Below, one piece after another: positions 5,262 through 59,648 of a stretch of DNA of 64,000 bases. Source of the stretch: a virus. The notes under the pieces were generated by a model. The model made no database searches, was not told the DNA's origin, and saw nothing but the letters and a program-made list of their open reading frames with translations. Position numbers and translations under genes: made by a program. The stretch lies in IMG/VR virus record IMGVR_UViG_3300013093_000022, positions 62,514 to 126,513 of that record. One strand, 5' to 3'. Every line of letters begins with the position of its first letter. Within the stretch, counting starts at the first letter, position 1.

Positions 5262-5411
5262 TCACCGATATTCGGTGTCTTCGGTCCTTTTCATAGTGCC
5301 GGTCGGGATCCGGGCACCGCCCAACAGGCCAGCCACCTCCGACACGGGGGGCACCCCTCGGGCCTCCCGGTTCGGCAGCCCGTACTGCTGAGACTGCGGG
5401 GTGATCTGCAT
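5262..5411 (-). CDS. possible 49-aa hypothetical protein
   Basis: ATG 1 nt after the upstream stop (MQITPQSQQYGLPNREARG...); below the track cutoff. Confidence 0.35.
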   Translation of the reverse strand: MQITPQSQQYGLPNREARGVPPVSEVAGLLGGARIPTGTMKRTEDTEYR

Positions 5412-6112: not shown

Positions 6113-7723
6113 CTAGTCGCTCTGGAGCGTGTTTGACGCGCCGCCGAAGTCGTTGACCGCCGAGCTCGACGGGCCAGCGGCCGAACTCATCAAGCCGCTC
6201 TGCGTGTTCTGGGTGGTCGTGAAGTCCGACGCATTCGGAGACGCCCCGGTTGAGGTTACGGTCCCGGTGCTCAGGTCGATCCCGAAGGTCAACACGATGT
6301 AGTTCAACGGCATCGAGGGCTTCCAGTTGTACGAGATTTCCAGCACGTCGGGGTTGGTGATCAGTTGGCGTACGGTCAGGGAGTTATAGCCCGCGATCAG
6401 GCCGTTCACGAGCAGCGACTGGAGGCCGGCCTCGGCGGCGGCCTTCACATTGATCATCGTGTAGTCGTAGATCGGCTGGCCGATGAGGTTCGAGTTCTGC
6501 AGGTAGGCCCGCAGCGTGTACACCATCGAGTCCTGCTGGCCGACGATGTTCCACTCCCGGTGGAAGAGGTCGGCGTTGTTGGTGGTCACCCCGTGGCGGA
6601 CCCACATCCGGCCCCCGTTCGGGGGTGCCATCTCGATGACCATCAGCCCGTTCTGCGACTCGAAGCTCTTCTGGCTGTCGTTCACGCTGTCGTTGATCCC
6701 GGCGAAACCGGTGATCGCCTTGTGGGTCAGGGGTTGGGCGGCGCTCATGCTGACCGCCATACCGGCCAGGGCGCACGCGATGTACTGTCCCCCCAGGTTG
6801 ATGGTCTGGCTCAGCTCCGGAGAGTAGTACGAGAAGCTGGTCGGCGAGACGAGTGCGATCCGCTCGTCGTACAGGTCGGAGGCGTACTGGATCCGCTGCG
6901 TGCTCGACACCGTGTTCCCGGCCGTGCCGTCCATGCCGAGGATCGCCCGCCGCTCGAAACGGCTCGCCGACTGCTGGTCGACGTGCTCCTGGACCGCCTG
7001 GTTCAGGGGGCCCAGGTACGATCCGCTGCACGGCACCACGACCGACACCAGGGCCTGGTCGTTGAGGAGCTGGAGGGCGTTGTAGTAGTCGCCGTAGTTG
7101 GGGGCGCTCGGGTTGGCCGGATTCACCGCGACCGTCATCACCTGGCTGGCACCGTTCAAGAAGGCGAACTTCGCGCCCAAGGTCAGCTCCGACTGGACGA
7201 CGAAGCCGTTCGGGTTGGTGGTCGTCGGGACCGACGCGAACGGGGCACCGTACATGGTGACCACGTCGTTGTAGGTGTAGAAGACCTGCGGCTGGTAGTA
7301 GCTGGCGTCGGTGTAGGTGTACGAGATCTGGACGACCTGGCCGACGTTGATGTGCCCCGAGATGACGCGGGAGATCGCGTACGCCGAGGCGGCGGTGCCG
7401 CTCGCGGTTCCGTTGACCGACACGACCGTGTAGTCGGTGTTCAGGGTGTACACCTGGCCGGTGCTGGGGTTGGACACCACGATCGTGGCCTGGTCGATGC
7501 CCAACTGGGCCAGGGTGGCGTTGATCGCCGGGACCGAGGTGCTGGTGTCGGGGTTGATGACGATGCTCTGCACGAACTTGTTCGACCCGATCGACAGGCC
7601 GACCAAGGCGACGGCCGTGGGGATCGCGTTGTTGATCGCCAGGACGGTCGTCTCAGTGGGGTTGGTGTAGACCCCGGGCGGCAGGTACCTGGAGAAGTCG
7701 ACAGCCTGCGACGGAGTGCTCAT
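6113..7723 (-). CDS. tail sheath protein
   Basis: 536 aa; N-terminal YLPPGVY and C-terminal PSMPLNYIVLTF sheath signatures. Confidence 0.92.
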   Translation of the reverse strand: MSTPSQAVDFSRYLPPGVYTNPTETTVLAINNAIPTAVALVGLSIGSNKFVQSIVINPDTSTSVPAINATLAQLGIDQATIVVSNPSTGQVYTLNTDYTVVSVNGTASGTAASAYAISRVISGHINVGQVVQISYTYTDASYYQPQVFYTYNDVVTMYGAPFASVPTTTNPNGFVVQSELTLGAKFAFLNGASQVMTVAVNPANPSAPNYGDYYNALQLLNDQALVSVVVPCSGSYLGPLNQAVQEHVDQQSASRFERRAILGMDGTAGNTVSSTQRIQYASDLYDERIALVSPTSFSYYSPELSQTINLGGQYIACALAGMAVSMSAAQPLTHKAITGFAGINDSVNDSQKSFESQNGLMVIEMAPPNGGRMWVRHGVTTNNADLFHREWNIVGQQDSMVYTLRAYLQNSNLIGQPIYDYTMINVKAAAEAGLQSLLVNGLIAGYNSLTVRQLITNPDVLEISYNWKPSMPLNYIVLTFGIDLSTGTVTSTGASPNASDFTTTQNTQSGLMSSAAGPSSSAVNDFGGASNTLQSD

Positions 7724-7755: not shown

Positions 7756-7792
7756 TCACTCTTTAGAGGGGCAGACCGGTGCCGGTTCACAT
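7756..7792 (-). promoter_or_regulatory. putative phage late promoter ATGTGA-N22-AAAGAGTGA
   Basis: Bipartite motif ending about 32 nt upstream of the sheath ATG. Confidence 0.6.
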
Positions 7793-8716
7793 CACCGGGT
7801 AGTCGACGTTCACCCCGTTCGTTTGCCCAGTCATGTCAAAGGGCGCGTACCCTGCGGGTATGACCGGGGAGTTCCCCAGCCACGCCTGGGGGGTGTAATC
7901 CTGCCCGGTCTCGGAGACCGTGACCCCCGACCGGATCTCGGCCAGGGTGTACAGGCCGTCGTTGTTGTACGAGAGGTTGAACTGGCCGACCATGTCGACG
8001 CTCCACGAGTCCTGGTAGGTGAGCAGGTCGTCGGAGAAGGGGGTGCCTTGGCTGGCCTGCTGGCCGCCGGGCAGGAGGGTGTCCAACTGCAGGGTCATCG
8101 CCACGTACGGGTTCTGGTCGAGGGCGGTGATCAGGCTCCGGTACTGCTGGGTGTCGGCCTGGGGCCTGGTCAGCAGGAGCTGCGGGGTCCGGGCGAAGGC
8201 CAGGACCGAGATCAGCGAGTCGGACAGCCGGTCCCGGTCGAGGCTCTTGAGGGCCAGGATCGTCATCGTGATCCGGCCTTGGAAGGTCCAGTCCTGGATG
8301 AACGACCACTCCCCGGTCTCGGGGTTCTTGACCTGGACCTCGTGGCCCAGGCCCGACCGGTTGATCTTGGTGACCGAGAACTCGACGAACACCGACGGGT
8401 ACTCGACCTGCTTGAGCGGGTAGTCGAGGGCGATCTGGACCTTCTGGGTCTTGTCGAACGACATCGAGCCTTGGAGGGCGTCGCGCAGCGCCTGGACGGT
8501 GGCCGTCTTGACCGACTGGATCAGGCCCCCGTCGGAGCGGGGCAGGGGAGGGATCTGGACCGACCCGCCGGGGGGGAAGTCGTAGTCGGCCATGAACACC
8601 GACGGCCCGAACTCGGGGTGGTCGGGGCCGAAGGTCTCGGGGAGCTCGACCGGGAACGCATCCGAGTTGGACACCGGTGCCCCGGGCTCGCCGGGCGGCG
8701 TCAGGGGCCCGGTCAC
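7787..8716 (-). CDS. probable tail terminator / neck protein
   Basis: 309 aa, directly upstream of the sheath; DYPLKQVEYPSVFVEF motif. Confidence 0.6.
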   Translation of the reverse strand: MTGPLTPPGEPGAPVSNSDAFPVELPETFGPDHPEFGPSVFMADYDFPPGGSVQIPPLPRSDGGLIQSVKTATVQALRDALQGSMSFDKTQKVQIALDYPLKQVEYPSVFVEFSVTKINRSGLGHEVQVKNPETGEWSFIQDWTFQGRITMTILALKSLDRDRLSDSLISVLAFARTPQLLLTRPQADTQQYRSLITALDQNPYVAMTLQLDTLLPGGQQASQGTPFSDDLLTYQDSWSVDMVGQFNLSYNNDGLYTLAEIRSGVTVSETGQDYTPQAWLGNSPVIPAGYAPFDMTGQTNGVNVDYPVM

Positions 8717-9165
8717 GAGAACCCCTGGTCCCGCATCAACTGGTTGATGTCGTAGTCGCCGACCGACTTTTGGGGTCGGCCGTAGTTCTCGGCGTAGTGC
8801 TGCTCGGCGGCCGCCTTGGCCTTCTCCGGGGTCTTGAACCGGCCCAACTGCTCGGGCTCGTCGCTGAGCGAGTACCTCGGCGAGGTGATGCTGCCGTAGT
8901 CGCCGCTCGGCGGTTCAATGGTTTCCATGCCTTGGTGGAGACCGTGGTGGTTGACACCCCAGACGACGGGGTTCCTGCCTCCCCCACCCCGGTAGATATG
9001 ATACTTGACGTGGGTTTCACCGAAGGGTGGGTGCCACTTTTCGGTACCCGTGTTCGTGCCGGGCCAGCGGGGCCGCCAGTCGTCGTGCGGCTCGTCGGGC
9101 GGGAGGACGACGTCCTCGGCGGCGATTCTGAAGGCGAACGTGTCGCGCTGCGTCTGGACTCTCAC
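8713..9165 (-). CDS. leader-bearing paralog 3 (candidate capsid cargo protein)
   Basis: 150 aa; N-term MRVQTQRDTFAFRIAA, C-term YDINQLMRDQGF; GTGA-coupled. Confidence 0.8.
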   Translation of the reverse strand: MRVQTQRDTFAFRIAAEDVVLPPDEPHDDWRPRWPGTNTGTEKWHPPFGETHVKYHIYRGGGGRNPVVWGVNHHGLHQGMETIEPPSGDYGSITSPRYSLSDEPEQLGRFKTPEKAKAAAEQHYAENYGRPQKSVGDYDINQLMRDQGFS

Positions 9166-9785
9166 CGGAACCCCTCGTCCCGCATGATCTGGTTGATGTC
9201 CATTTCGCCCAGGCCGCTGCCCTGCCGCTGCGTGTGCCTTCCCCAGGCGGTCTCAGCGGCACGCTGGGCGCTCTCCCGGTCGGGCTGATAGCCCCACAGC
9301 TCGCCCCGGCTGCCGTCTTGGAACCTCTCGTCCTCGAGGGTCGTCCCGAGGGGGCCGCCGGTGTGGGAGATCTGGTCCCAGCAGTCGGGGTCGCACTGCT
9401 TGCCCGGCTCGGCACCGCACATGCCGCACTCCAAGTCCCGGTCGCCCGGGTCGAGGTGCTCCCACCCGTGGGAGGTGGCGGGATCCGCGCCGCCGGGGCC
9501 GTGGTAGGCGTGGATGGACCACAGGTAGGGCTCGCCGACGATGGTCTTCTCGTGGTTGACCTGCAGGGCGTGCGGACGCTCGCCGTGGTAGACGATGGCG
9601 GTGGACAGGTCCTTTGGCTTCCACGGGGGCGACCCGCCGTACAGGCCGCGCTCCTGCCCCTCGTTGTAGTAGTCCATGTGGTCGGCGGTGTCCGGCAGCA
9701 CGAGGCCGCGCCGCCAGTCGACCGGTCCGGGGCCCGCGATTCTGATGGGAAACGTGTCCCGCTGGGACTGGACGCAGCGGGTCAC
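9162..9785 (-). CDS. leader-bearing paralog 2 with inserted Cys4 zinc module
   Basis: 207 aa; N-term MTRCVQSQRDTFPIRIA, internal CGMCGAEPGKQCDPDC, C-term MDINQIMRDEGF. Confidence 0.8.
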   Translation of the reverse strand: MTRCVQSQRDTFPIRIAGPGPVDWRRGLVLPDTADHMDYYNEGQERGLYGGSPPWKPKDLSTAIVYHGERPHALQVNHEKTIVGEPYLWSIHAYHGPGGADPATSHGWEHLDPGDRDLECGMCGAEPGKQCDPDCWDQISHTGGPLGTTLEDERFQDGSRGELWGYQPDRESAQRAAETAWGRHTQRQGSGLGEMDINQIMRDEGFR

Positions 9786-10282
9786 GACCTCTCCCCGAAG
9801 ATGTCGCCGTAGTCGTCGTTCAGTTCCTGCCCCGGGCCCATCAGCGACTCGTAGTCAACGCCGGAGTCGCCGCCGCCTCGGGAGCGGCTGCGGTGGTTCA
9901 GCCCGTGGAAATGGGCCTCGGCGGCCGCCTTCGCCTCATCATGGGTGGGGTAAATGGTCTTGCCGTTGTCCCCCTGCCACAGGAGGTCCCCGTCTCCGTT
10001 GCCGTAGTCGCGGTGGTTGCCCGACTGCCCGTCCTCGTCCTCAAACGGCTCATTGGTCCAGACGCCGTATCCCCAGCCGATGGGCGGCAGGTCGTGCCGC
10101 ACGCGGGACCAGCCGTCGGGGCCGGGGGGGTCTTTCTGGTGCTCCAGATTGGTCTGGAGGAAGTCCCCGAGCTCGCTGTAGGCTTCGGCCCCGCGACCAT
10201 CGCGGTCGTCCTCCCAGTTGAACTGGAGCCCCGAGGCCAAGATTGACCTCGCGAAACTGTCCCGTTGCGTCTGTATCCTCAC
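9782..10282 (-). CDS. leader-bearing paralog 1
   Basis: 166 aa; N-term MRIQTQRDSFARSILA; shared EAKAAAE helix. Confidence 0.8.
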   Translation of the reverse strand: MRIQTQRDSFARSILASGLQFNWEDDRDGRGAEAYSELGDFLQTNLEHQKDPPGPDGWSRVRHDLPPIGWGYGVWTNEPFEDEDGQSGNHRDYGNGDGDLLWQGDNGKTIYPTHDEAKAAAEAHFHGLNHRSRSRGGGDSGVDYESLMGPGQELNDDYGDIFGERS

Positions 10283-10740
10283 AGCTCACCCCTGATCGCC
10301 CGTTTGATTTCGTTCTCGATGTCCTTGCGCGAGTCCTGGAGCGCCCGCCGGATCGCGTCGTGCATGATGTTCGTCGGCTTCAAACCGGGGTGACGCCACC
10401 TCTGGGCCCGCCACACCCTGCCCCGGTGGGGGATGTCGACGTAGCCGGGGGTCCCGACCACCCCCTGACCGGCGCGCCGGTAGTGGGGCCCGTCGCCCTG
10501 CTTGCAGCCCATCGGCAGCGTCCGGCCCTCGACCCACTTCATCAGGAAAGGTTTGGTCCCTGACTCCTGGTACAGCAGGTACCGGGTCTCGGTCCGGATC
10601 CCGACCTGCCCCGTTTTCGCCATCGGCTCCAAGGTGCGGGCCGACCTCCAGCCCTTGCCGGTCATGTCCTGCCGGGCGTACTGGACCGCCTTGTAGGCCA
10701 CCGCGCGGGCCAGGTCCTCGGGGATCGGTATCAGCGCCAT
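10279..10740 (-). CDS. neck / tail-completion protein
   Basis: Start revised to ATG 10740 (MALIPIPED, TGATG overlap); basic, with YQESGTKPF and RHPG motifs typical of HK97 gp10-like tail-completion proteins. Confidence 0.65.
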   Translation of the reverse strand: MALIPIPEDLARAVAYKAVQYARQDMTGKGWRSARTLEPMAKTGQVGIRTETRYLLYQESGTKPFLMKWVEGRTLPMGCKQGDGPHYRRAGQGVVGTPGYVDIPHRGRVWRAQRWRHPGLKPTNIMHDAIRRALQDSRKDIENEIKRAIRGEL

Positions 10741-11630
10741 CAGACCAGCACCGCCACGCCCGACTGGGGGGAGCCGAAAGCGATCAGCACCAGGCCCGGG
10801 CTCGGGTACGAGACGTCGGCGCTGACCGCCTGGCCGTCGACCACCACCGTCACCTCCGGGTCGTGGCCCAGGGCGTGGGCCACCGTCCACAGCGCCGACG
10901 GCGCGGTCTGGGTGTAGGTGATCATCTGCGGGCTCCCTCCGCCGGCCCCCGGCAGGAACGGCGTCCCCGGCGGCGGCGCGACCGGGGGCCCCGACGGGGG
11001 GCTGGCCGGGACCGGGTTCGGCGGTGCCGACGAGCCCACGTTCCTGTCGGGGAACGACCAGCCCTCCACCGGGAAGGCCGTCACCCCTTTAGTTCTCGGC
11101 GGCACCCAGTTCACCGTGGCCGCCTGGCCGATCACGTCTCGCCACGTCTGCCCGTACTGGGGGCCGGTCCGCAGGCTGTTGCGGGTCACGGCCGTCACCT
11201 CGAAGAACTCACCGGCCCGGACCACCGTGTTGTTGTCGCCCCACTGCCTGACCCGCACGATGTAGTCGTGCTCGACCAGCATCGGGAAGGCCTCGCACTG
11301 GACCTGGCGCTGGTCGGCCTCCAAGGTCCCGAACTGTCCGTACTGCTCGGTCACCACGTGGTCGGTGAACTGGCACCAGGCCACGGCCGCCATCTTCACC
11401 CCGCCCTGGCCGGTCGCCTCGCTGAACCACGAGGTGCCGTAGCACACCGGGCACTGCTCCTCGGCGTCCAGGTACTCGCTCGACGCGCACCGGGGGCAGC
11501 GTTGGACGTCGTCCTCCTCCCGGTACATCGACAGCAGGACCGCCCTCTCACCGTGGTATTGGAGAGAGTCCCGGACGCACGAGCGCAGGTAGGTGACCGT
11601 GTACGGCTCGGTGAGCTTGACGATCGACAT
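10740..11630 (-). CDS. probable head closure/neck protein with Zn ribbon and C-terminal appended domain
   Basis: Start revised to ATG 11630 (MSIVKLTEP); CPRC...CPVCYGT; Pro-rich linker, then a WTVAHALGHDPEVTVV domain. Confidence 0.65.
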   Translation of the reverse strand: MSIVKLTEPYTVTYLRSCVRDSLQYHGERAVLLSMYREEDDVQRCPRCASSEYLDAEEQCPVCYGTSWFSEATGQGGVKMAAVAWCQFTDHVVTEQYGQFGTLEADQRQVQCEAFPMLVEHDYIVRVRQWGDNNTVVRAGEFFEVTAVTRNSLRTGPQYGQTWRDVIGQAATVNWVPPRTKGVTAFPVEGWSFPDRNVGSSAPPNPVPASPPSGPPVAPPPGTPFLPGAGGGSPQMITYTQTAPSALWTVAHALGHDPEVTVVVDGQAVSADVSYPSPGLVLIAFGSPQSGVAVLV

Positions 11631-14024: not shown

Positions 14025-15005
14025 CTACAGTCCGCCCGGGATACCGGCCCCGTGGTTGGTCGAGCCCCATGAGATCGACGGTGCCGCCGGGTAGAACCGC
14101 CACGAGCGGACCTGGGAGGCGTAGGTGCCCGCCTGGAAGATGCCCAGTGCGTTGCCGCCGTAGATGCCGCCGCCGACCAGCAGGGCACCCCGGCCTAGGC
14201 TGAGCAGCTTCCTCTTCGCCATCTTGGTGTATGTCACGTACTCGGGCCACTCCTGGGTCCAGATCGTGTTCCACCGCTGCTGGTAGTCGCGCCGGTCGGC
14301 GAACGTGATGTTTGAGCCCTGGAACACCGGGATCTCGGTGTAGGAGGCGACCAGGAATCGGACCACCTCCAGGTAGGTGCCCAGGACCAGCAGGCCGTGG
14401 AAGTCTTGGTTGACCTCCTGGGTGTCGGGCCCCACACCCCAGTACATGACCGGGAAGCCGATCAGGTTCATCCGGGTCACGGCACGCTTCTCGCACTGGG
14501 CCAGCCGCTCGTAGTCGAAGTGGGTCTGGAACGGCTCGATCAGGTTCGGGCCGCCGGTCGACGAGTCGAACAGGTCTCCCAGCATCCACGACACCTCCTC
14601 GACGACGCTCCTCTCCGAGTCGCGCAGGGAGTCGTAGAGGGGCATCTGGTTGAGGATCTGCGCGTTGTCGTAGAAGGAGAGGGTCTGGCCGTTGACGGCG
14701 TAGGTCCACACCATCGTCAGGACTCCCCGGTACATGGTGTTCGGGGGCCCGATGTCGTAAGAGTAGTGGCCGGTGTCGACCCAGGTGATCTGGTCGGCGG
14801 TCGCGGTGACGATCAGGTTGCCGGGCGGCTGGGACAGCAGTTCGCCCGGGTTGGCCGGGTCGGCCTGGTTGAAGTACACGTTCAGTTGCAGGCTGCCCGG
14901 GTCGGCGTCGGTGTACGAGGATCCGTTCGTGATCGACAGGGCCGTGTAGCCGGAGCCGTTCTGGGAGATGAACTTCCGGACCAGGGTCTGATCCTGGAGC
15001 TTCAC
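14025..15005 (-). CDS. probable head-to-tail adaptor
   Basis: Start likely GTG 15005 (GTGA overlap); N-terminal Ig-like part, then a helical adaptor-like domain (DRRDYQQRW). Confidence 0.65.
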   Translation of the reverse strand: MKLQDQTLVRKFISQNGSGYTALSITNGSSYTDADPGSLQLNVYFNQADPANPGELLSQPPGNLIVTATADQITWVDTGHYSYDIGPPNTMYRGVLTMVWTYAVNGQTLSFYDNAQILNQMPLYDSLRDSERSVVEEVSWMLGDLFDSSTGGPNLIEPFQTHFDYERLAQCEKRAVTRMNLIGFPVMYWGVGPDTQEVNQDFHGLLVLGTYLEVVRFLVASYTEIPVFQGSNITFADRRDYQQRWNTIWTQEWPEYVTYTKMAKRKLLSLGRGALLVGGGIYGGNALGIFQAGTYASQVRSWRFYPAAPSISWGSTNHGAGIPGGL

Positions 15006-15130
15006 TGCTGCCCCGATTCCTCTAGGGTCGTGTCGGACGCCATCTTCGGCGACACCACGTACTGGCCCCACGGCAACATCCTGGAGATGACCGCCGGGTC
15101 GTTGTAGACGTTGGGCGAGGGTTCGGTCAC
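15002..15130 (-). CDS. 42-aa hypothetical protein
   Basis: GGAGGAGGG RBS before GTG 15130 (MTEPSPNVYNDP). Confidence 0.55.
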   Translation of the reverse strand: MTEPSPNVYNDPAVISRMLPWGQYVVSPKMASDTTLEESGQQ

Positions 15131-21839: not shown

Positions 21840-22571
21840 TTAGATCGCTGGTGCTAGAACGGTGGACATTGCTGTGTAAAACCTCGCGTAAGATGCGGTG
21901 CCGCTGATGGTTCCGGTGAAGGTCTTCGTGGTGCTTGCATCGGCAATGTTTGAGCCGACGTAATATACCCCCGCACCGTTCCAGCCGCTTAAGTTGAACC
22001 TTTGATCCCCCCCGGCAGGGGAGGTGATGCCGGAAGGCGAGTTGAAGCAACTGAACATGAATCCATTTACGACCATATTGTTGACAGGGCAGGAAATGGT
22101 GTTACTGAGGCTGATCGCCGCTGTTGTTGACGTAACCGGATTCACTGTGGTCGCCTGACTGGTGACATTCAAGTAGGACATTGAGGAAATACAGGTCCAG
22201 ACTGCGTTGCCGCCAAATGTGATGTAGAGGCTTACCGGGCCTCCGCTGACATTCGGCAATCCGTATCGGGAATACATCCCAGCGGTACTCAAGCCAGATT
22301 CTGTAAAGGTGACCGACGAGAGAAGCTGCATTGCGGTTCCCGACGACCCACCGTACTGGACGCTGGTTATTGGCACGCGGTCGGTCACAACATCTACAAT
22401 CAAATACGACCCCGCCGTGGCAACACTGTTGATTGAGTAAGTGGTGGCGTTGATATACTGCTGGTAGGTCGTCGGGTAGCCCGTCCCGCTCTGGTCGTAT
22501 TTGACAGCGATCCCCTCCGATGGCTGTGGGGCAATTGGCCTGATCGGGAACCGACGCAACAGGTGCGCCAT
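21840..22571 (-). CDS. low-GC fibre/appendage subunit
   Basis: 243 aa; N-term LLRRFP; beta-rich domain. Confidence 0.75.
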   Translation of the reverse strand: MAHLLRRFPIRPIAPQPSEGIAVKYDQSGTGYPTTYQQYINATTYSINSVATAGSYLIVDVVTDRVPITSVQYGGSSGTAMQLLSSVTFTESGLSTAGMYSRYGLPNVSGGPVSLYITFGGNAVWTCISSMSYLNVTSQATTVNPVTSTTAAISLSNTISCPVNNMVVNGFMFSCFNSPSGITSPAGGDQRFNLSGWNGAGVYYVGSNIADASTTKTFTGTISGTASYARFYTAMSTVLAPAI

Positions 22572-23251
22572 CAGAGCCTCGCCATCCCCACCGCACTCGA
22601 CATAGGCATTTGCATTTGACTCAATCCCTGCGGCGGCACGTCCACGTTGGTGTAGGTGTAAATCCAGGCCGCGCCGTTACCCCCTGACCCACCCGGACCG
22701 TAGTAAAAACTGCCGCTATTTCCCGCACTCCCAGGCGAACCACCACTACCAAATACCGCGCTAGCCGCAGTGCCCCCTAAATAGGTTTTAAAATCAAACG
22801 TGAAGTTTCCGGCAGGTTGCCCCTGAACAGCGTCGTATCCTGCGGTGACGTAACCTGCAACGCCGCCAGCCGCCGTTAAAGACCACGATCCAGATGAGGC
22901 GGAACTGTTACTCCCGGCGATGCCGGGATAGGCGTAACCAGCGTAAGGCAAGGGACCGCCAGCGCCACCCGCGCCGACAGTCACAGTGATTTTTGCGCCG
23001 ACCGGCACCGTCACACCAACTGCGAGGGTTTGGCCTTCCCACTTGCCAGCGCCACCGCCGCCGCAGTAGGTTCCACCACCGGAACCACCACCCCCGCCGC
23101 CGATCAACACCACGTCCACGAAGTTGACACCGGCAGGAATCGTGAAAGCAAACGTACCGGGCGTGTTGAGTTGGAGGGCGAGCTGTTTATAAATCGGGGT
23201 TGGTAAAAAAACTCGTGTCTGCGGGTATCCGCGACCAAGGCGAGATGCCAT
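22571..23251 (-). CDS. low-GC glycine-rich-domain fibre subunit
   Basis: FTIPAGVNFVDVVLIGGGGGG...TVTVGAGGAGG glycine-rich domain. Confidence 0.8.
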   Translation of the reverse strand: MASRLGRGYPQTRVFLPTPIYKQLALQLNTPGTFAFTIPAGVNFVDVVLIGGGGGGSGGGTYCGGGGAGKWEGQTLAVGVTVPVGAKITVTVGAGGAGGPLPYAGYAYPGIAGSNSSASSGSWSLTAAGGVAGYVTAGYDAVQGQPAGNFTFDFKTYLGGTAASAVFGSGGSPGSAGNSGSFYYGPGGSGGNGAAWIYTYTNVDVPPQGLSQMQMPMSSAVGMARL

Positions 23252-23252
23252 G

Positions 23253-23906
23253 TCAGATCAGCCCCCCACGAGTCATCATGGTAGTGGCTGTTATTTGGGA
23301 ATAATTTTCCGGCAGGGTCAGGATGTAGGGGTTGACGTAGGCGTAGAACCAGATTGCCCCCTGACCTCCAGCGCCGCCACCGTAAGCAAAAAAAGATGGC
23401 CCCCCGCCGCCACCCGGCACCGCGCCAGTTTGACCGAAACCCAAAGAAATTAGTGGACCGCCAATGTAGCTTCTCCCATTGTAGCTAATTCCCCCAGGTG
23501 ACGTAGAGGAAGCGGTCCCAGCATTCTGCGCTCCAGCCGCGACGAGGCCGGACCAGCCAGTAGAAGTCGCCGTGGTGTTGCCCCCCACCCCGAACCCGTA
23601 GACTCCACCACCCCCACCGGCACCGACTGAACCCGCAATGGTGGGACCGACCTGAGATACCTTGACTGTTGCCCACGCCCAGTTTCCTGGGTTACCTACG
23701 AAGCCGTAGCCCCCACCGGAGCCGCCACCTAAAGCGACCACGTCCACATACACTGCACCCACTGGAATTGTGTAGGTGTATGCACCTACTGCGGTGAATT
23801 GTGCCATCGCATTGTTGGAGTGGACAGTGCCGGGTGCAGACTGTTTGGCCCAACCCGTGTAAGGCTGGGTGGACTGCATTGGGAAGCCTCGACCGATGAC
23901 GGGCAT
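23253..23906 (-). CDS. low-GC glycine-rich-domain fibre subunit
   Basis: YTIPVGAVYVDVVALGGGSGGG; paralog of the 22571 ORF. Confidence 0.8.
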   Translation of the reverse strand: MPVIGRGFPMQSTQPYTGWAKQSAPGTVHSNNAMAQFTAVGAYTYTIPVGAVYVDVVALGGGSGGGYGFVGNPGNWAWATVKVSQVGPTIAGSVGAGGGGGVYGFGVGGNTTATSTGWSGLVAAGAQNAGTASSTSPGGISYNGRSYIGGPLISLGFGQTGAVPGGGGGPSFFAYGGGAGGQGAIWFYAYVNPYILTLPENYSQITATTMMTRGGLI

Positions 23907-24652
23907 CAGAACAACCTCCCCCTGGACATAGGGATTGTCACCGGAACCTGGGAAGGCTCCTTAAGGTACGGGGTCTGTATCAGCGGCACAGCGATAGAGC
24001 AATACCCGAGGCTGCCGCTCGACGTGGTCGCAAAGGTCGCGGGAGGAACGGCATCACCAATATACAGCGTAGAACATGCAAAACGTTCTGTTTTTGTGAG
24101 ATAACCCGTCACCGCTGTATCGCTGAGTGCGGCCCCCATCCACGCCTGGGAAATGAGCTGTCCACCCGACACTGTTGTTGAGATGGTTCCGGCAGTGTTC
24201 TGTCCTTGGAGGATGACAGGTATTCCGAATCGTCCGACGTTGTTATACGAAACTGAACCAACATAAACACCATTGGCGTTAATGTTACAGTTGGAAACAG
24301 AAACGGAAATCGTCTGAGTACCCTTGGGTGGATTGCTCAATCCGAAAACAAAACCATATCCCCAAAAATAATAGCTGGCGATAAACAGGTAGTAAGGACC
24401 AACCTGATAGGCGATTGGTGTCATGCTTAATCCCCCACAGGAAACATTCACCGTGGGCGCGGAGTTATAGACATCTACTTCCACATAAACCAACAAAGCA
24501 TTGCCAGCTATGGTGTGAGAAAAGGAGGGGTTTGCTGCCCCTGTCCCACCAGCGAAACCCGCACCAGCGGAGTCGAACGTGATCGGGGAAACCGCGCCGT
24601 CCGACAACGTCAAGGTAGAGGCGACGGGTAGGGTGCGACCAAGCCGTGCCAT
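23906..24652 (-). CDS. low-GC fibre/appendage subunit
   Basis: 248 aa; N-term MARLGRTLP, C-term QVPVTIPMSRGRLF. Confidence 0.78.
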   Translation of the reverse strand: MARLGRTLPVASTLTLSDGAVSPITFDSAGAGFAGGTGAANPSFSHTIAGNALLVYVEVDVYNSAPTVNVSCGGLSMTPIAYQVGPYYLFIASYYFWGYGFVFGLSNPPKGTQTISVSVSNCNINANGVYVGSVSYNNVGRFGIPVILQGQNTAGTISTTVSGGQLISQAWMGAALSDTAVTGYLTKTERFACSTLYIGDAVPPATFATTSSGSLGYCSIAVPLIQTPYLKEPSQVPVTIPMSRGRLF

Positions 24653-25380
24653 TACAGGTACGCTCCGCGACTCATCGTTACTGGAACCTGATTGTAAAGT
24701 TCCGGCAGTGCAGGGGGGAACGGTAGGGGGTTAAGTGGCAGAGAAAAGGAACTCCAAGCATTGGCGCTAGCGGTAGCCGAAATGTTTCCAGAGGTAGATG
24801 TTCCCAGTAGAACTTGCTGTGTTGACGCAATCGTTCCGCTGTAGCCGGAACTGTAAGAGGTCATTGCGTTGAAGATCAGCCCATTATTTTCCAACCCGGT
24901 CACGGTTTGGCTGATCGACGTTGTAGTACCGCTGGCGGTCTGTATTCTCCCCACCGAACCAACATTGCGGAACGATATCGCGTTCAAACCCAAGGCGCTG
25001 TTGTAGCCGGTATTTGCCGTGTTTGATATTGTCTGTAGTCCTTGCGGCGGGTTCCAGAGTAGGTATAAAAGAGCGCTCTGCGCCTGATTGACTACGTTAA
25101 CGTAGTTTAGAACGGCAGAAACGAATTTCATCGTCTGACCACCGACACTGATCGTACATGGGTTTCCTCCAATCGGACCCTGCGTATACAGAGTCACGAA
25201 AACGAGTAACAAGTTGCCGTAGATGTACTGTTGCTGTGTCGGGGCATTGCTAATCGCAATCGTGAACCCAGCATTGCAGCCTGGACCGACAACGTCCACC
25301 GTGACCGGGGAAAACGGGGCAATGCGGGGAGCAAGCTGATTATTCTTTGTTGAGGCGAGTTGGCTGTGAAACCTCCCCAC
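24652..25380 (-). CDS. low-GC fibre/appendage subunit
   Basis: 242 aa; GGAGGGGAGG RBS; paralog of the 23906 ORF (NPPxGxQTIS). Confidence 0.78.
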   Translation of the reverse strand: MGRFHSQLASTKNNQLAPRIAPFSPVTVDVVGPGCNAGFTIAISNAPTQQQYIYGNLLLVFVTLYTQGPIGGNPCTISVGGQTMKFVSAVLNYVNVVNQAQSALLYLLWNPPQGLQTISNTANTGYNSALGLNAISFRNVGSVGRIQTASGTTTSISQTVTGLENNGLIFNAMTSYSSGYSGTIASTQQVLLGTSTSGNISATASANAWSSFSLPLNPLPFPPALPELYNQVPVTMSRGAYL

Positions 25381-31534: not shown

Positions 31535-32305
31535 CTAGTCGAACCGTTCCTGAGCGTCCTTCTGGGTGGGCTTCGGCAGGCTCGCCAGGTTGATGAAGTC
31601 GCCGCTCAGGTCCTTGCAGGCGTGGACCGGCTCACCGGCCAGCCAACGGTTGTACGTCCTGATCCAGACCGCGTACTCGTTCATCAGCGCCGTGTAGCTG
31701 CCCGTCCCCCCGATCTTCAGTGGGCGGACGTTGATCAGGCGGCGGCGCATCGCGCCGAAGGTGGCCCGCTCGGTCTCGTCGCCGCACACCCCGGTGGCGA
31801 CCCCGGTCGCGAACTCCATGTGCTTCACCGGGTCGGCACCGGCCCGGTCGAGGTGGATGTGGAGCGCCGCCAGCGCCGAGGCGGTGATCGACTTGTTCCT
31901 GCCCGAGGCCGTCTTGGTGTACGGCGACTCGTCCGACAGCGCTATCGCCCACTGGACGATCGGACGCCACTCGTCGTTGAAGACCTGGACGTAGTCGGCC
32001 ACCAGGCCCTTGTCCTGGGTGGCGACCATGCCCATCTCCTCGACGATGAACAGCCGGGCGACGGCGGCGAGCCGCCCGACCAGGGACATCCTCGCGCCCC
32101 GGGTCTGGAGGACGTTGCCGATCGTGCGGGGCTTGTTCATGTCGATCACGTCCCCGGCGGAGGGCTCAACGCCCTCGACGATCATCATCGGGACGTCCTG
32201 GGACTTGTCGTTGATGTTGACGCCCATCCCCGTGTGGGGAATTGCAGCCGTGCGCCACGGTGACAGCAGTTCCACCTGCTCCCTCGCCGTCCAGATGCGC
32301 CTCAC
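31535..32305 (-). CDS. leader peptide fused to the C-terminal part of a ParB/DGQHR-like protein
   Basis: Start likely GTG 32305 (GTGA overlap): MRRIWTAREQVELLSPWRTA, then VPMMIVEGV...DVIDMNKPRTIGNVL. Confidence 0.6.
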   Translation of the reverse strand: MRRIWTAREQVELLSPWRTAAIPHTGMGVNINDKSQDVPMMIVEGVEPSAGDVIDMNKPRTIGNVLQTRGARMSLVGRLAAVARLFIVEEMGMVATQDKGLVADYVQVFNDEWRPIVQWAIALSDESPYTKTASGRNKSITASALAALHIHLDRAGADPVKHMEFATGVATGVCGDETERATFGAMRRRLINVRPLKIGGTGSYTALMNEYAVWIRTYNRWLAGEPVHACKDLSGDFINLASLPKPTQKDAQERFD

Positions 32306-32538: not shown

Positions 32539-33447
32539 TTAGGCTCGGAGAACGGCGAGAAACTGATTCTTGTTGAAGATGCGCTCCAACTCCCCCAGTC
32601 GCTGCCGATCAACCACCACCAGTGGCTCTGAGAGGTCCCAGGAGTCCCGAATCCGAGGTTGGGGACTGTTGGGGTGGTCCCAACCCTTAGTCTCGATGGC
32701 GAGCCCTTCAACTAAAAAGTCGGGACGATACTCGTGGCCGTCAAGAATAAACGGACGGTCGTCGGGCCACGGTGCCCAAGAAATATTTAAGCGAGTCAGG
32801 CAAGCGATGAATCGAATCTCGTAACCACTGTTGAGATTTACTTCACCGTGACGGTAGTGCTGTGCCCGTTTTCGGCTGTGCTGCAAGTTGGAGCATTTTA
32901 ACGAACAGAACATCATCTGCCCCGGCCACGTTCCAGGGCGGGAAAATTCTTCTTTGCACTGCTGACAGACGGCAGTCTTTCTGGGGATGGGTTTGCGGCC
33001 TGGGCGAGATGTTCGATGTTCGCTGCAGTAAATCCGGTTGTATGACCCCGTGGAGACGCCACACACCTTGCACTCTGGGTAGTGAATGCCACTTGACCGA
33101 GCAATTGCGGCGCACTTCACCGAACAGGTGTTGCGGTCCTGACGGGCGTAGTGGGTGAATTCGTTACCGCATACGGTACACGTACTGGCGGCCCTAGCTT
33201 CCTGTGCCGCCATTTTTCCTCGGCATTTTACGGAACAGGTGTTGTAGGGCTTGCTCCTGCGGTATTTGAACTCTTCGCCGCACCCTGGGCAGACCTTGAC
33301 TATCCAAGTTTCCTGAGCCTCATAAGTGGCTTTCATGTTGCGGGTGCGGAGTTCCTTCCCACACGCGGTTGAGCACGTCCGTTTTGTTCGATATCTGGGC
33401 TGCTCGAACTCGTCGCCGCAGATCTCACAATTACTTTTGTCAGACAA
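32539..33447 (-). CDS. free-standing homing-type endonuclease: tandem Cys4 zinc repeats plus PD-(D/E)xK nuclease
   Basis: Five CxxC...(C)SxxC-type repeats, then SGYE...YRPDF...IETKG; lower GC; start likely TTG 33447 after GGAGGGG. Confidence 0.8.
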   Translation of the reverse strand: MSDKSNCEICGDEFEQPRYRTKRTCSTACGKELRTRNMKATYEAQETWIVKVCPGCGEEFKYRRSKPYNTCSVKCRGKMAAQEARAASTCTVCGNEFTHYARQDRNTCSVKCAAIARSSGIHYPECKVCGVSTGSYNRIYCSEHRTSRPGRKPIPRKTAVCQQCKEEFSRPGTWPGQMMFCSLKCSNLQHSRKRAQHYRHGEVNLNSGYEIRFIACLTRLNISWAPWPDDRPFILDGHEYRPDFLVEGLAIETKGWDHPNSPQPRIRDSWDLSEPLVVVDRQRLGELERIFNKNQFLAVLRA

Positions 33448-33504
33448 AGCAAAACCCCTCCATTTCGGTTGGTTACCCAACCTTACATGAAGGGGCCTTG
33501 CTTT
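33446..33504 (-). terminator. long hairpin: capsid-gene terminator and/or RBS-sequestering structure
   Basis: AAAGCAAGGCCCCUUCAU pairs with AUGGAGGGGUUUUGCUUU (18 bp with G-U), plus an inner GGUUGG/CCAACC stem. Confidence 0.75.
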
Positions 33505-35129: not shown

Positions 35130-38100
35130 TCAGAAGAAGAGGGCGCTGTCGGTGTCGGGATCACTGGCGGAAATCCGACGGGTGCTCGCCACGCGCTGGT
35201 TGGCGAATCCGACCGGAATCCCTCTGGTCCCGCGAGAGCCTGCTGCGGCGACCTTGCGTGCGGTCTTCTTGCTTTGCTTGCCCTGGTCCGCGACGACCGC
35301 CTCGAGGACACGGATCCGGTCACGAACAACCGGCGAGCGAAGGGTTTCGAACCGGGCGGTCAGAGTCCACCGGTCCTTCTCCGAGTAGGTACCCGGGTAG
35401 GCCTTGATGTAGGCGTCGGCCAGACGAACGGCCTCCACACCCGTGGCCAGCTTCCTGGACTCCTTACCCTTGTCGGGTGCCCAGGTGCCCGCGTTACCGT
35501 CCACGACATCGAGGACCGGGTCAGCGAGCTGGTCACCGGCGTTGTGCGCGAAGTCGCTGAGATCGAACTGCGATGCCTGCGCGTCTGCGTCGGTAACATT
35601 CTTGACAGGAGCCTCGACGTCGATCCGGTCCTGTGGTGCCGCCACGCTCAAAGACTCGTCCTGAGCCCTGCGTTGACGCATATTGCCTCCCTCGAACTTG
35701 CGGGCCTCGGCCAGAACGTATTCCAGCGTCGGGAACAGTGTGGCCAGCTTGGCCTGCGGGTTCTGCCACCGGGCCGAGTACGAGGCGGCGGCGCGGCGGA
35801 TGAAGTTGGCGTTGCGGTGCTGGCGTGCAGTCCGGCCGGTCGCCTTGTGGAGCCACGAGTCGAAGGCCCGGAAGGCGTGGATGGAGGCGTCCTTGGGCTG
35901 GGTTTCGACATTGTCCAGGGCCAGCGAGTCGAAGTCGTCGCCCGCCAGTTCCTGGACGTCGGTGCCCGACAGTTCGGGGTCGACGGTCGTCGGGTCCTCA
36001 AGTTCCTCGGCGTAGAAGTAGCGGTTGCCTCGTTTCACGACAGGAACGGCGGCCGCCTCGTAGAAGGTGCGGCCGTTGAAGTTCGGGTGGTCGGCGGTGA
36101 GCATGGCCACCATCTTGCGGGCCATCGCGCCGCGCTGGGCCGGGGGCAGGGCGCGGACCACGTCGGCCAGGCGCTGGTAGTGGCCCGGGTCGAACTGGGG
36201 CCGGCGCGAGGCCACCAGGTTGTTCTCGGTGTTCGAGATCGGGGAGTCGCCCTCGACCGGGGCGGCCACCGCCTCGGCACCGGGCACCTGGGAGATGAAC
36301 ACCTCCTCGGAGTTGCCCTGGCTGTCGTCGATGCCGTACGGGCCGCCGTCGGTGTGTCCGCTGTCGTCGGCCATGAAGTGCCGCCCCTTGGCGGTCCGGC
36401 TGGCCAGTGTGGTGCGTCGCATGGTGCCTCCTCGCTTATTGCCACGCGAACGTGCGCTTCTCACAGGATCGGCGTAGAGGTAACCAGATTCCTTCTTGTT
36501 GCCTCCATCAAGGTGGTCGTCAACAATGTCCTTAATGCCGTCCATAGTGTCGGCAGAGTGCATGCCTTTGCCGTCAAGCATCACGGAGTACATTCCGTTG
36601 CCGCGATGCCGAGAAATGGAATGATCGCGGTAGGATGACCCCGATTCATCGTCACGATAATCGAGGGCAGCCCTACGGCGGGCTTCCATCTGCTGGCCGT
36701 CGGCACCGGCGTAGTCCTCGTCGTAGTCGCCCATAGGGTCCGAGTCGTCGTCACCGTCGTCGTCGTAGTCGCCCCCGTCGCCGTCCTCAAGGCCCTCTTC
36801 GCTCTCAAAGGCCTCGATGTCGCCCTCGGCCTCGTCGAGCAGCGACTCGATGTCCCCGCCGCCCATCTCCGGGCCCATGTCCTCGCCACCCATGTCGGGG
36901 CCGCCCTGCTCATCCCCGTAGCCCGGGTCCTCGTCGCCGTAGCCCTCGTCGCCGCCGTAGGCCTCGTCCTCGGGGCCCGCCTCGTCGCCGTAGCCTTCGT
37001 CCTCGTCGGCCGCGTAGTAGCGACTCATGCCTACTCCTTTGGTGGTCCGTCTACCCTTTTTAAGTTCCGGGGGGTTGATTGGCATTACAGGGTTGTTTTT
37101 TTTCTTACCGCTCGGCATTGCCACCTCTTCGGCAGATTCCGAATTGCGGTCGTCGTCGAGGCCGCCCTTTTCCTGGTCGGCGTCCAATTTGTGGGAGCGG
37201 TCCATCGACGGTGCCCGCAATTCCATCGGGCTCTGCACCCAATGGTGAAAAAGGTCGGTGTCGTCGTCCGACTCGTCGCGCAAAGTGTCGATGTCCTCGG
37301 GGGCCTTGTTCTTCAACAGGCGGGGCAATTCGGCCTTCTTGTACCAGTGGGCCATGAAGTCGCCCTTTCTCTTCGCCTTCTTGATGGTCGCCCCGTACAG
37401 GGCCCGCAGGTCCTGGTTCGGGTCCCACTCGTCGACACCCAGGTTCTTGGCCCCCAAGGCGTTGCGGTACGAGGCCAGCGCCTGTTCCTTGGCGTGGTCG
37501 GCGCTCTCGGCGTGCCCCCAGTTGGAGGGCCTGTAGTCAACAATGTGCGGGTTGTGGGGGTGCGGGCCCCCCTCCTCGTGGACCCACTGCCAGCGCGAGT
37601 CGGGGAAGGTCTCGTCCGGCGAGAAGACCGACAGCCGGTGGCCGCCGGGCAGGACCGCCACTGAGTGGGCACCCGACTCGTCCGAGAACTGGACGTCGTC
37701 GACGGCACCGGCCGACCTGCGGTTCGCTGAGATGACCCGCGACACGACCGCCGTCTCGTCGGCCGGGTCGAACACGTAGCTCAGCTCGAAGAAGCCCAGC
37801 TTGTAGCACTTCTCGTACACCAGGGTCCGCTTCCCGGTCTTGGCGTTCTTCATGTGCTCGCCCTTGTGCAGCAGGATGTGGTCGCACATGTTCGACTCGT
37901 CGGTCGCCCTGTGGTCGCAGACCGAGCAGATCGTGAAGCCCGCCTCGACGCCCATCGACACCGAGTCCAGGCCGCCCGACACGATCTCGCGGGCCAGCTT
38001 CGGGAACCGGACCGCGTCGGTCTCCATGATCGTCTCGACGTATCGGTCGGCACCCTTCTCGATGTAGCGGGCAGCCACCACCACCCCGCGCGCCCTCTCG

Positions 38101-38360
38101 GGATCCTCGTTGCCGTGGTTGACGAACACCGGCTTGCCGACGAACGTCTTGTAGTACTTCTTCAACTGGCTCGACGGCCAGGCGTCGTAGTTCTGGTTCA
38201 CCCGGGCCGAGATCGCCCTCACCTGGGTGTACACGAAACCCGGTTTGGCCTTCCACCCCTCGGCGGCGGCCCCGGCCTTCCGGTAGTCGGCCACCAGCCG
38301 GGTCGCGTCGTCGCCCGAGAGGGAGGCCCCGACCTTGGAGGAGCTGATCCTGCGCTGCAC
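35130..38360 (-). CDS. capsid maturation protease fused to scaffold-like polyprotein
   Basis: N-terminal TFVGKPVFVNH...SVSMG...FFELSYVFDPADETA prohead-protease motifs with a Zn insert; very acidic C-terminal modules. Confidence 0.8.
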   Translation of the reverse strand: MQRRISSSKVGASLSGDDATRLVADYRKAGAAAEGWKAKPGFVYTQVRAISARVNQNYDAWPSSQLKKYYKTFVGKPVFVNHGNEDPERARGVVVAARYIEKGADRYVETIMETDAVRFPKLAREIVSGGLDSVSMGVEAGFTICSVCDHRATDESNMCDHILLHKGEHMKNAKTGKRTLVYEKCYKLGFFELSYVFDPADETAVVSRVISANRRSAGAVDDVQFSDESGAHSVAVLPGGHRLSVFSPDETFPDSRWQWVHEEGGPHPHNPHIVDYRPSNWGHAESADHAKEQALASYRNALGAKNLGVDEWDPNQDLRALYGATIKKAKRKGDFMAHWYKKAELPRLLKNKAPEDIDTLRDESDDDTDLFHHWVQSPMELRAPSMDRSHKLDADQEKGGLDDDRNSESAEEVAMPSGKKKNNPVMPINPPELKKGRRTTKGVGMSRYYAADEDEGYGDEAGPEDEAYGGDEGYGDEDPGYGDEQGGPDMGGEDMGPEMGGGDIESLLDEAEGDIEAFESEEGLEDGDGGDYDDDGDDDSDPMGDYDEDYAGADGQQMEARRRAALDYRDDESGSSYRDHSISRHRGNGMYSVMLDGKGMHSADTMDGIKDIVDDHLDGGNKKESGYLYADPVRSARSRGNKRGGTMRRTTLASRTAKGRHFMADDSGHTDGGPYGIDDSQGNSEEVFISQVPGAEAVAAPVEGDSPISNTENNLVASRRPQFDPGHYQRLADVVRALPPAQRGAMARKMVAMLTADHPNFNGRTFYEAAAVPVVKRGNRYFYAEELEDPTTVDPELSGTDVQELAGDDFDSLALDNVETQPKDASIHAFRAFDSWLHKATGRTARQHRNANFIRRAAASYSARWQNPQAKLATLFPTLEYVLAEARKFEGGNMRQRRAQDESLSVAAPQDRIDVEAPVKNVTDADAQASQFDLSDFAHNAGDQLADPVLDVVDGNAGTWAPDKGKESRKLATGVEAVRLADAYIKAYPGTYSEKDRWTLTARFETLRSPVVRDRIRVLEAVVADQGKQSKKTARKVAAAGSRGTRGIPVGFANQRVASTRRISASDPDTDSALFF
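36432..36466 (-). promoter_or_regulatory. intragenic late promoter CTGTGA-N20-AATAAGCGA upstream of in-frame ATG 36422
   Basis: Bipartite motif immediately followed by GAGGAGG RBS. Confidence 0.6.
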
Positions 38361-59619: not shown

Positions 59620-59648
59620 ACAGTAGCCGCGACTCAAGAAGCTATCAA
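59620..59648 (-). promoter_or_regulatory. SigA-type promoter TTGATA-N17-TACTGT
   Basis: 5/6 match at -35, TAnnnT at -10, 17-nt spacer. Confidence 0.5.

Follow-up and report, generated by a model that had tools for sequence, protein, structure and literature searches.

Shared leaders and tails on a modular protein family of Myrna-like myoviruses: possible addresses to the virion

Why should three adjacent genes, set among the structural genes of a phage, open with nearly the same short peptide and close with similar ones when the sequence in between has widely diverged? This question is raised by a 64,000-nucleotide stretch of viral DNA (the window throughout this text; positions 62,514 to 126,513 of IMG/VR virus record IMGVR_UViG_3300013093_000022), which represents the second half of a 126.5-kb record with 65.5% GC and a CheckV completeness of 84%. 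Its tail sheath shows ~50% identity to those of the Mycobacterium phages Phrappuccino and Myrna, its nearest cultured relatives, and on this basis we assign the window to an uncultured Myrna/Phrappuccino-like myovirus; calling it a mycobacteriophage is an extrapolation from these relatives. The three genes lie on the minus strand and are termed W1, W2 and W3 (genes 1, 2 and 3 of the trio). An initial annotation of the window had proposed that their common N-terminal leader routes variable cargo into the head, as does the T4 capsid-targeting sequence (CTS). We read the trio as small proteins, each with a gene of its own, that belong to a modular leader-cargo-tail set of Bxz1/Myrna-like actinobacterial myoviruses, in which the leader may address the protein to the virion; this is the explanation that we prefer, at somewhat less than even confidence. 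Hereinafter L1, L2, L3 and L4 denote types of leader, T1 and T2 types of tail and A, B and C types of core, while G000 (the genome of the trio itself), G001 and G002 are the three genomes with genes of the family.

W1, W2 and W3 are diverged paralogs that share a leader of ~16 residues, a helix of the AKAAAE type and acidic C-terminal tails. Their alignment shows 25-35% identity overall, with the invariant residues clustered in the first 14 residues, the A..AAE helix and the C-terminus, and a hidden Markov model (HMM) of the family recovers them with E-values of 1.5e-20 (W1), 1.3e-59 (W2) and 5.9e-52 (W3). The GC content at third codon positions of their open reading frames (ORFs) is 0.87-0.94 (0.88 in W1), as in the genuine genes of this genome; one gene call on the record (P0007) starts W1 at an internal TTG and so leaves its leader out. 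HMMs of the leaders and tails were scored against all 2,160 ORFs in the six frames of the 126.5-kb record, with reversed decoys as background. The L1 model gives 31-37 bits on the trio (Table 1) against 3.9 bits for the next ORF and 4.1 for the best reversed decoy, which bears out the leaders as originally quoted. The two T1 tails are likewise far above the next ORF (3.5 bits), and the T2 tail of W1 is above one of 6.1 bits; thus, the DINQ(I/L)MRD(E/Q)GF ending that had been noted on two genes is indeed present on W2 and W3, with W1 ending in T2 instead.

These common ends are also visible as DNA repeats, namely in the leaders (9122-9159, 9736-9773 and 10239-10276), the helices (8803-8832 and 9917-9946) and the T1 tails, where the repeat reported at ~8718-8750 and ~9168-9200 is found to span 8713-8760 and 9162-9209 with 81% identity. 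Among the leader codons that specify an unchanged residue, 3/9, 3/10 and 2/6 differ synonymously. With about a third of such codons changed, selection acts on the leader peptide; the leader is thus conserved at the protein level, and recent gene conversion is not the cause.

Using sequence profiles we then recovered a wider family. A word-seeded profile search yielded 29 relatives among 8,000 scored candidates, and an exhaustive HMM search of 1.84 billion representative proteins yielded 45 clusters at E <= 1e-3, all of them metagenomic and labelled as hypothetical proteins. Against the curated families of Pfam-A and PHROGs v4 the trio gives no match at or above cut-off: no PHROGs v4 family was matched, and the sole Pfam hit is a weak one of W2 to Phage_zn_bind_8 (20.5 bits, under the 24-bit cut-off). 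The cores of the family fall into type A (HVKYHIYRGGG...), type B (HALQVN..., often with a Cys4 insert) and type C (LENGH...); besides L4, described below, the leaders are L1 (MRIQTQRDTFALRIAAE), L2 (MSRHLMA(K/R)(M/F)R...) and L3 (MSDPILAAIQATRYADAIMRRTAAE), and the tails are T1 (DYDINQIMRDEGF) and T2 (DDDYGDIFG...). Across 83 family sequences L2 is the commonest leader (51), followed by L3 (13) and L1 (8), while 11 bear none of these. The proteins P0011 and P0073 are 89% identical across their remaining 132 residues despite having different leaders (L3 and L2, respectively), pointing to leader swapping on a short time scale; the four leader types are interchangeable on family cores.

The modular build extends to fusions. 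Relatives of 342-702 residues are polyproteins; the junctions between their successive modules open with a peptide that is either T2-like or DPFDPRLIGA, after which comes a stretch resembling a leader, with RIAAE or RRTAGE at its end. Types A and C occur both split and fused (P0031, P0039), and W1 aligns with the second, type-C module of the polyprotein P0039 (E = 1e-10). Seven metagenomic polyproteins gave no informative match in Pfam. A related module that the initial annotation had seen inside the protease ORF of the window attains only E = 1.3 with the family HMM; by eye it resembles a module of a G001 polyprotein, and this likeness could not be made significant.

Two related genomes were retrieved from IMG/VR, by means of a back-translated L2 pattern and of the alignment A6. 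Single trio proteins and the alignments A2 and A3 found no related locus in IMG/VR, nor did two metagenome scans find one or a T1-tail pattern search any related genome; a lone match to a metagenome-assembled genome of Pirellulaceae in a scan of a genome collection lies in no real gene and was rejected as chance. In G001 (150.1 kb, 97% complete) the family is represented by three L2-led genes: two separate the gp118-like gene from the gp119-like one, and the third stands between the latter and the gp120-like gene. G002 (94.6 kb, 62% complete) has an L2-led gene in the former slot and a second gene in the latter. Hence all eight family genes (three in G000, three in G001 and two in G002) are inside the neck module, distributed over the slots gp118|gp119, gp119|gp120 and gp120|gp121, and they overlap their neighbors by 1-4 bases. 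The second G002 gene starts with MRIVSAREQVQLLAAWRRTAG, i.e. it is led by L4, and its product of 133 residues matches the type-C module of P0039 over its full length (E = 3e-11), which marks it as a genuine type-C member of the family.

The leader L4 (MRRIVTAREQVEMLSPWR) heads nine ORFs in G000, G001 and G002, including the above family member. An HMM built from these nine leaders, that of the window ORF 32305..31538 among them, separates the nine (41-52 bits) from the rest of 6,431 ORFs (next real ORF 5.9 bits, best decoy 10.8), and each match begins at a start codon. Proteins headed by L4 are otherwise diverse. Each of the other eight either went unmatched when the genomes were searched with the family profile or is far larger; in three pairs tested with BLASTP the common part is the ~20-residue leader only. 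Pfam searches recovered a GNAT acetyltransferase above cut-off together with a weak ASCH domain in one protein, DUF7178 in two mutually related ones and a sub-threshold ParB_N in another. Those of 514-1,199 residues have repeated linkers, and the largest, a 1,199-residue protein of G001, includes a type-C module whose tail is DDYGDIFG. Since each genome has one to five other proteins led by L4, mostly with different bodies and some of them enzymatic, the leader behaves as a portable tag. Consistent with this, 10 Mycobacterium phage records contain the body of the window L4 protein but not its leader, the alignment starting from residue 38. Homologs of the DUF7178 protein, found in 206 phage records, align from residue 1-3.

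The positions of the L4 genes are also restricted. Six of the nine fall in the interval from the major capsid gene to the neck genes and a seventh, the family member, within the neck module, such that the capsid-to-sheath stretch holds 7/9 L4 genes along with all eight family genes; of the other two, G002 62375 is elsewhere on the opposite strand and G001 88132 has no assigned position relative to the capsid and neck genes. L4 is further detectable in cultured phages: in Catera gp102 (27-33 bits), at one site in Myrna (31 bits) and at one weak site in Phrappuccino (E = 0.005). In Catera gp103 (L027 15883-17184) it scores 40 bits when the frame is read upstream, giving MCNRRRIVTAREQFEMLQPWYREAA; the annotated start at 15928 removes it, and the frame stays open as far as an ATG at 15883, where it overlaps the end of gp102. 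The proposal that a portable leader heads varied proteins of the late operon is therefore partly supported, by the relatives and not by the trio itself, whose L1 leader is found only on paralogs. Similarly, the leader of the 32305 ORF, which had been likened to that of the trio, is a conserved, portable one (49-59 bits with the L4 model) whose likeness to L1 is insignificant, and the leader suggested for the 58450 ORF is not distinguished from decoys by any of the leader HMMs. We do not claim that some L4 proteins and Phrappuccino gp67 and gp68 are ADP-ribosyltransferases, an idea that received no Pfam support.

To understand how the leader relates to the domain that follows it, we examined AlphaFold2 models. 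The model of W3 (predicted local distance difference test, pLDDT, 85.7; predicted template modelling score, pTM, 0.72) has a beta-sheet core, a helix at residues 113-127 and a tail helix at 140-146, and its leader residues 1-13 score below 50; in the model of W2 (pLDDT 81.6, pTM 0.76) the leader is below 55. Both models place a confident beta-sheet core before the conserved helix, followed by a short tail helix of moderate confidence, and they set the leader apart from the fold. Foldseek searches with W3 against PDB and BFVD and with W2 against PDB returned nothing significant (best E 0.51, 0.061 and 0.85), the ESM Atlas no match >= 0.8, and the A5 profile nothing below E = 0.34 among PDB sequences. 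Weak fold matches that recur, to levivirus coats and to p32/PUR-like beta-sheet-plus-helix folds, are leads only. A lone match of the A4 profile to a collagen adhesin in PDB (E = 1.3e-4) was unsupported by the fold search and was set aside. A complex prediction for W1, W2 and W3 (W3 as partner), made without controls, gave run scores of 0.50, 0.00 and 0.00 and counts neither way.

Turning to the locus itself, the genes flanking the trio have clear counterparts in cultured phages: the upstream neck gene matches Myrna gp120 (BLASTP 4e-46) and Phrappuccino gp71 (4e-40), and the downstream gene Myrna gp121 (6e-55) and Phrappuccino gp72 (5e-75). As the gp120-like and gp121-like genes are adjacent in both Myrna and Phrappuccino, the trio is an insertion between them. 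The homology of the upstream gene starts at residue ~51, and therefore its true start is probably near 10740, ~50 codons inside the longest ORF (10279-10890). There are no promoter-like sites in the surrounding 4 kb, and the single terminator-like site there is on the opposite strand; with neither kind of site on the coding strand, the trio belongs to the late operon. All three genes have GTG starts and a 4-base overlap (GTGA) with the adjoining gene, and a G-rich Shine-Dalgarno-like run precedes each start within the final codons of the preceding gene. The end of the W2 tail, GAC GAG GGG TTC CGG, holds such a run for the W3 GTG, the run GGGGAGAGG at the end of W1 immediately precedes the W2 GTG, and the unrelated upstream neck gene ends in RGEL, which likewise encodes one. 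Consequently, the final 3-5 codons of the tails are under an extra constraint, because they hold the ribosome-binding site of the next, overlapping gene.

Table 1. Features of the window: the trio, its leaders and tails, the L4-tagged gene and neighboring genes
Feature	Position	Strand	Description
W1 (gene 1)	9782..10282	-	166 residues; type C; L1 leader, AKAAAE helix, T2 tail DDYGDIFGERS
W2 (gene 2)	9162..9785	-	207 residues; type B; L1 leader, Cys4 insert, AQRAAE helix, T1 tail DINQIMRDEGFR
W3 (gene 3)	8713..9165	-	150 residues; type A; L1 leader ending AAE, AKAAAE helix, T1 tail DINQLMRDQGFS
L1 leader of W1, MRIQTQRDSFARSILA	10235..10282	-	L1 HMM 30.8 bits; DNA repeat D1
L1 leader of W2, MTRCVQSQRDTFPIRIAG	9732..9785	-	L1 HMM 32.9 bits; DNA repeat D1
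L1 leader of W3, MRVQTQRDTFAFRIAAE	9115..9165	-	L1 HMM 36.7 bits; DNA repeat D1
T1 tail of W2	9162..9203	-	T1 HMM 31.2 bits
T1 tail of W3	8713..8754	-	T1 HMM 37.1 bits; overlaps start of gp121-like gene at 8716
T2 tail of W1, NDDYGDIFGERS	9782..9820	-	T2 HMM 20.5 bits
L4-tagged protein, MRRIWTAREQVELLSPWRTA...	31538..32305	-	256 residues; body in phrog_5931; L4 HMM 49.4-59.3 bits
Neck1/tail-completion-like protein, upstream neighbor	10282..10890	-	phrog_2819, phrog_5; homologous to Myrna gp120
gp121-like gene, downstream neighbor	7790..8716	-	phrog_2748; homolog of Myrna gp121 and Phrappuccino gp72
Tail sheath gene	7723..6116	-	after gp121-like gene

Several further features of these structural regions are recorded here. 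The gene order at 14028-15071, with the gp118-like gene upstream of the gp117-like one, is the opposite of that in Myrna, G001 and G002. In Phrappuccino, gp67 and gp68 (L001 4946-5952) form an adjacent pair inserted between the gp118-like and gp119-like genes, a slot that G001 uses for the family; the two share an N-terminal peptide of their own (MSVAILKQAQQFSWR and MTAILKQAEQYSWR) and Pfam matches neither of them. In the window, an ORF of 49 residues (5262-5411) located downstream of the tail tube gene begins with MQITPQSQQYG, and an ORF of 454 residues right after the tail tube gene of G002 (L018 13153-14517) begins with MSMPIQRQSEQYG; judged by eye, these may represent a further shared N-terminal peptide. 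The L4-tagged gene of the window lies downstream of the major capsid gene, from which it is separated by an inserted Cys-rich ORF of 313 residues (32539-33480). As an annotated HNH endonuclease (gp97) is found at the equivalent site in Catera, this ORF is probably a homing endonuclease insertion. The genes for the large terminase subunit (phrog_2; 59648-62953) and the portal protein (phrog_2833; 44175-48872) contain intein and LAGLIDADG homing-endonuclease domains (Pfam Intein_splicing, LAGLIDADG_3 and Hint), and an anti-repressor (Ant)-like gene (42555-43331; phrog_130, E = 4e-57) stands between the portal gene and a head-module ORF of 1,365 residues.

What might such leaders do? Under our preferred reading they would address the tagged proteins to the assembling virion, where the proteins would be incorporated, lose the leader to the prohead protease, ride in the particle and enter the next host with the DNA. 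Modelled on the T4 CTS, the destination would be the prohead interior, with docking at the neck as a close alternative. The machinery for processing is potentially at hand: a prohead protease domain (phrog_18299) occupies residues 57-205 of an ORF of 1,076 residues (38360..35133; phrog_2774), near the portal and major capsid genes. The rest of that ORF has a highly acidic low-complexity stretch with DEGYGDE repeats and ends in DPDTDSALFF, and this acidic remainder may act as a scaffold. In its most explicit form, the proposal is that a ~20-residue leader of one of the four types sends enzymes, beta-sheet modules and polyproteins into the prohead of Bxz1/Myrna-type phages, cultured phages of M. 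smegmatis included, that the junction peptides are cut there, and that the cargo is injected with the DNA, with the trio being single-module cargo; we regard this fuller version as possible though doubtful.

The following observations weigh against virion loading. L1 itself is restricted in the 126.5-kb record to the three paralogs. Direct kinship of L1 and L4 found no support, since under the L4 HMM W1 ranks 367th and W3 611th among 15,071 N-termini, ranks that are insignificant, and W2 shows no N-terminal alignment; the link between the two leaders is that both are found on family cores, not any likeness in sequence. Searches with tblastn using W1, W2, W3 and one G001 member found no match in 50,697 GenBank phage records. 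The proteins of the trio are acidic (isoelectric point 4.6-6.0). The idea that leaders and tails form amphipathic helices was dropped, the observed hydrophobic moment being reached by 21-89% of shuffles. The tail endings EGF(R/S) and GERS, and GGGR/GGEL in relatives, are explained in part by the translational coupling described above. No consistent protease cleavage motif is apparent after the leaders: [AGS]xE occurs near the leader end in 30/72 family N-termini against 21 +/- 3.7 in shuffles, and in the trio it directly follows the leader in only one gene of the three, that of W1 being ~15 residues beyond and W2 having none, while type-B proteins have AAQP in its place. The literature on virion proteomics and proteolysis of Bxz1/Myrna-type phages, supplementary tables not covered, yielded nothing usable. 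The neck-module location of the family genes fits a neck address at least as well. Finally, the window has a second tandem array, at 21843-25380 on the minus strand, whose five genes (217-248 residues) lie in an island of 52-60% GC against ~65% nearby. Their products have variable bodies, in part rich in glycine, enclosed by a common N-terminal peptide of the MA(R)LGRGFP type and a shared C-terminal motif, LPE..SQ..T..M.RG, and 4/5 match minor-tail-protein PHROGs, implying that the same design exists on external parts of the virion. Given the lack of a common motif, the acidity of the proteins, their neck location and this minor-tail-like array, docking at the neck and a role outside the virion stay serious rivals.

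The first of these is that the terminal peptides are docking pegs on the outside of the particle, by which the domains decorate the neck or collar, with the polyproteins forming beads-on-a-string appendages of the neck. It would account for the confinement of all eight family genes to three slots of the neck module, for their translational coupling to neck genes and for the short-termini design of the minor-tail-like array. We nevertheless consider it unlikely, as a GNAT acetyltransferase and large multi-domain proteins, both among the L4 cargo, would be unlikely decorations, Myrna and Phrappuccino build their necks without these genes, and the fold searches showed no resemblance to known decoration or fibre domains.

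A more restricted form of the preferred explanation, and that of the initial annotation, is a strict T4-style leader, which would enter the scaffolding core and be cut by the prohead protease at a terminal A-x-E, the polyproteins being cut at every junction. In its favor, W3 and most type-A members have a leader ending in (I/T)A(A/G)E, ...RIAAE and RRTAGE recur at polyprotein junctions right before the modules, the window encodes the prohead protease domain noted above, and there are precedents in T4 and SPN3US. It is rather unlikely in view of the modest enrichment of the motif, its displacement in W1, its lack in W2 and the listed type-B members, and the absence of a common terminal A-x-E from the L4 leaders. 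Moreover, RRTAGE may be part of the first strand of the domain and not a cleavage site, and the N-terminal domain of the protease has no informative sequence match in PDB.

Alternatively, these could be late accessory proteins that never enter the virion and function in host takeover or counter-defence, their termini being short linear motifs through which they bind a shared factor of host or phage, or one another. The moron-like insertion of the trio relative to Myrna and Phrappuccino, the fast-evolving cores of no known fold and the occurrence of types A and C in both split and fused forms (P0031, P0039) would all be in keeping with such a role. It is quite unlikely when set against the overlap with structural genes, the lack of promoter-like or terminator-like sites on the coding strand and the confinement of 7/9 L4 and 8/8 family genes to the capsid-to-sheath stretch.

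Least of all do we favor a constraint on the nucleic acid, whereby the junction would be a portable translational-coupling or recombination cassette for any operon boundary and the peptides functionless: the Shine-Dalgarno-like run in the last 4-5 codons before each start, the G-rich runs encoded by the GGEL, EGF, GERS and GGGR tails as well as by the unrelated RGEL end, and the use of different slots in different genomes speak for it, but it is made highly improbable by the synonymous differences in a third of the conserved leader codons, the conservative K/R and M/F replacements of L2 across cores <35% identical, the retention of leaders and tails inside polyproteins, where no restart is needed, and the fact that DYDINQIM, within the tail, precedes the ribosome-binding site.

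If these leaders are virion-loading tags, they would constitute the first such system described for actinobacterial phages; literature searches on capsid targeting sequences, in mycobacteriophages or for internal proteins, brought up work on T4, P1 and giant phages only. They would then open a way into a set of unannotated, fast-evolving proteins that may be delivered to the host by these phages, and could be used for loading chosen proteins into such phages. The proposal is directly testable, because L4 is present in cultured phages of M. smegmatis mc2 155 (Catera, Myrna). Regardless of function, the family offers a case of leader swapping between near-identical proteins, of split and fused modules, and of insertion at several boundaries of a structural operon.

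Several known systems resemble this arrangement in part. The closest at hand are minor-tail arrays with an N-terminal anchor, as in the five genes at 21843-25380 with their MARLGRGFP-type starts and common C-terminal motif; the bodies of those proteins match minor-tail PHROGs, unlike the trio, which matches none. Polyvalent proteins, described by Iyer, Aravind and co-workers, are reportedly long strings of small or enzymatic modules, encoded beside structural genes, that probably pass into the host along with the DNA. The proteins of 500-1,200 residues with repeated linkers in the relatives recall them, whereas the window genes are split single modules, and Pfam found none of the hallmark domains except GNAT and the sub-threshold ParB_N. 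The C-terminal encapsidation signal of the HK97 prohead protease and the cargo-loading peptides of encapsulins illustrate that short terminal peptides suffice for loading into an HK97-fold shell, and the acidic, aromatic C-tails DYGDIFG and DEGF, like the protease end DPDTDSALFF, share their general look.

In the giant phage SPN3US, head proteins have propeptides of 20 and 24 residues that are cut after A-X-E (PMC10052503). Among the head and ejection proteins of such phages (the gp245 substrates of SPN3US, the phiKZ group) there are families of head-borne paralogs, and the type-A leaders here comparably end in A-A/G-E. The A-X-E at P3-P1 of every site in the giant phages is, however, lacking here from W2, the type-B members and most L4 ends, and the window phage, which is not a jumbo phage, has its protease within a fusion protein of 1,076 residues. 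The T-even internal proteins are diverse, with only the CTS conserved, according to a review (PMC3012670). The likeness to the T4 CTS (IPI-III, Alt) is one of arrangement. There are four leader types here as against one in T4, the trio is homologous throughout and has a C-terminal tag in addition, and polyproteins exist. As in T4, a short N-terminal peptide is found on diverse proteins and the genes are small, variable and partly in tandem; one leader on unrelated mature proteins is seen for L4, not for L1, and a prohead protease domain (phrog_18299) with a long acidic extension, the candidate scaffolding core, is encoded in the same window.

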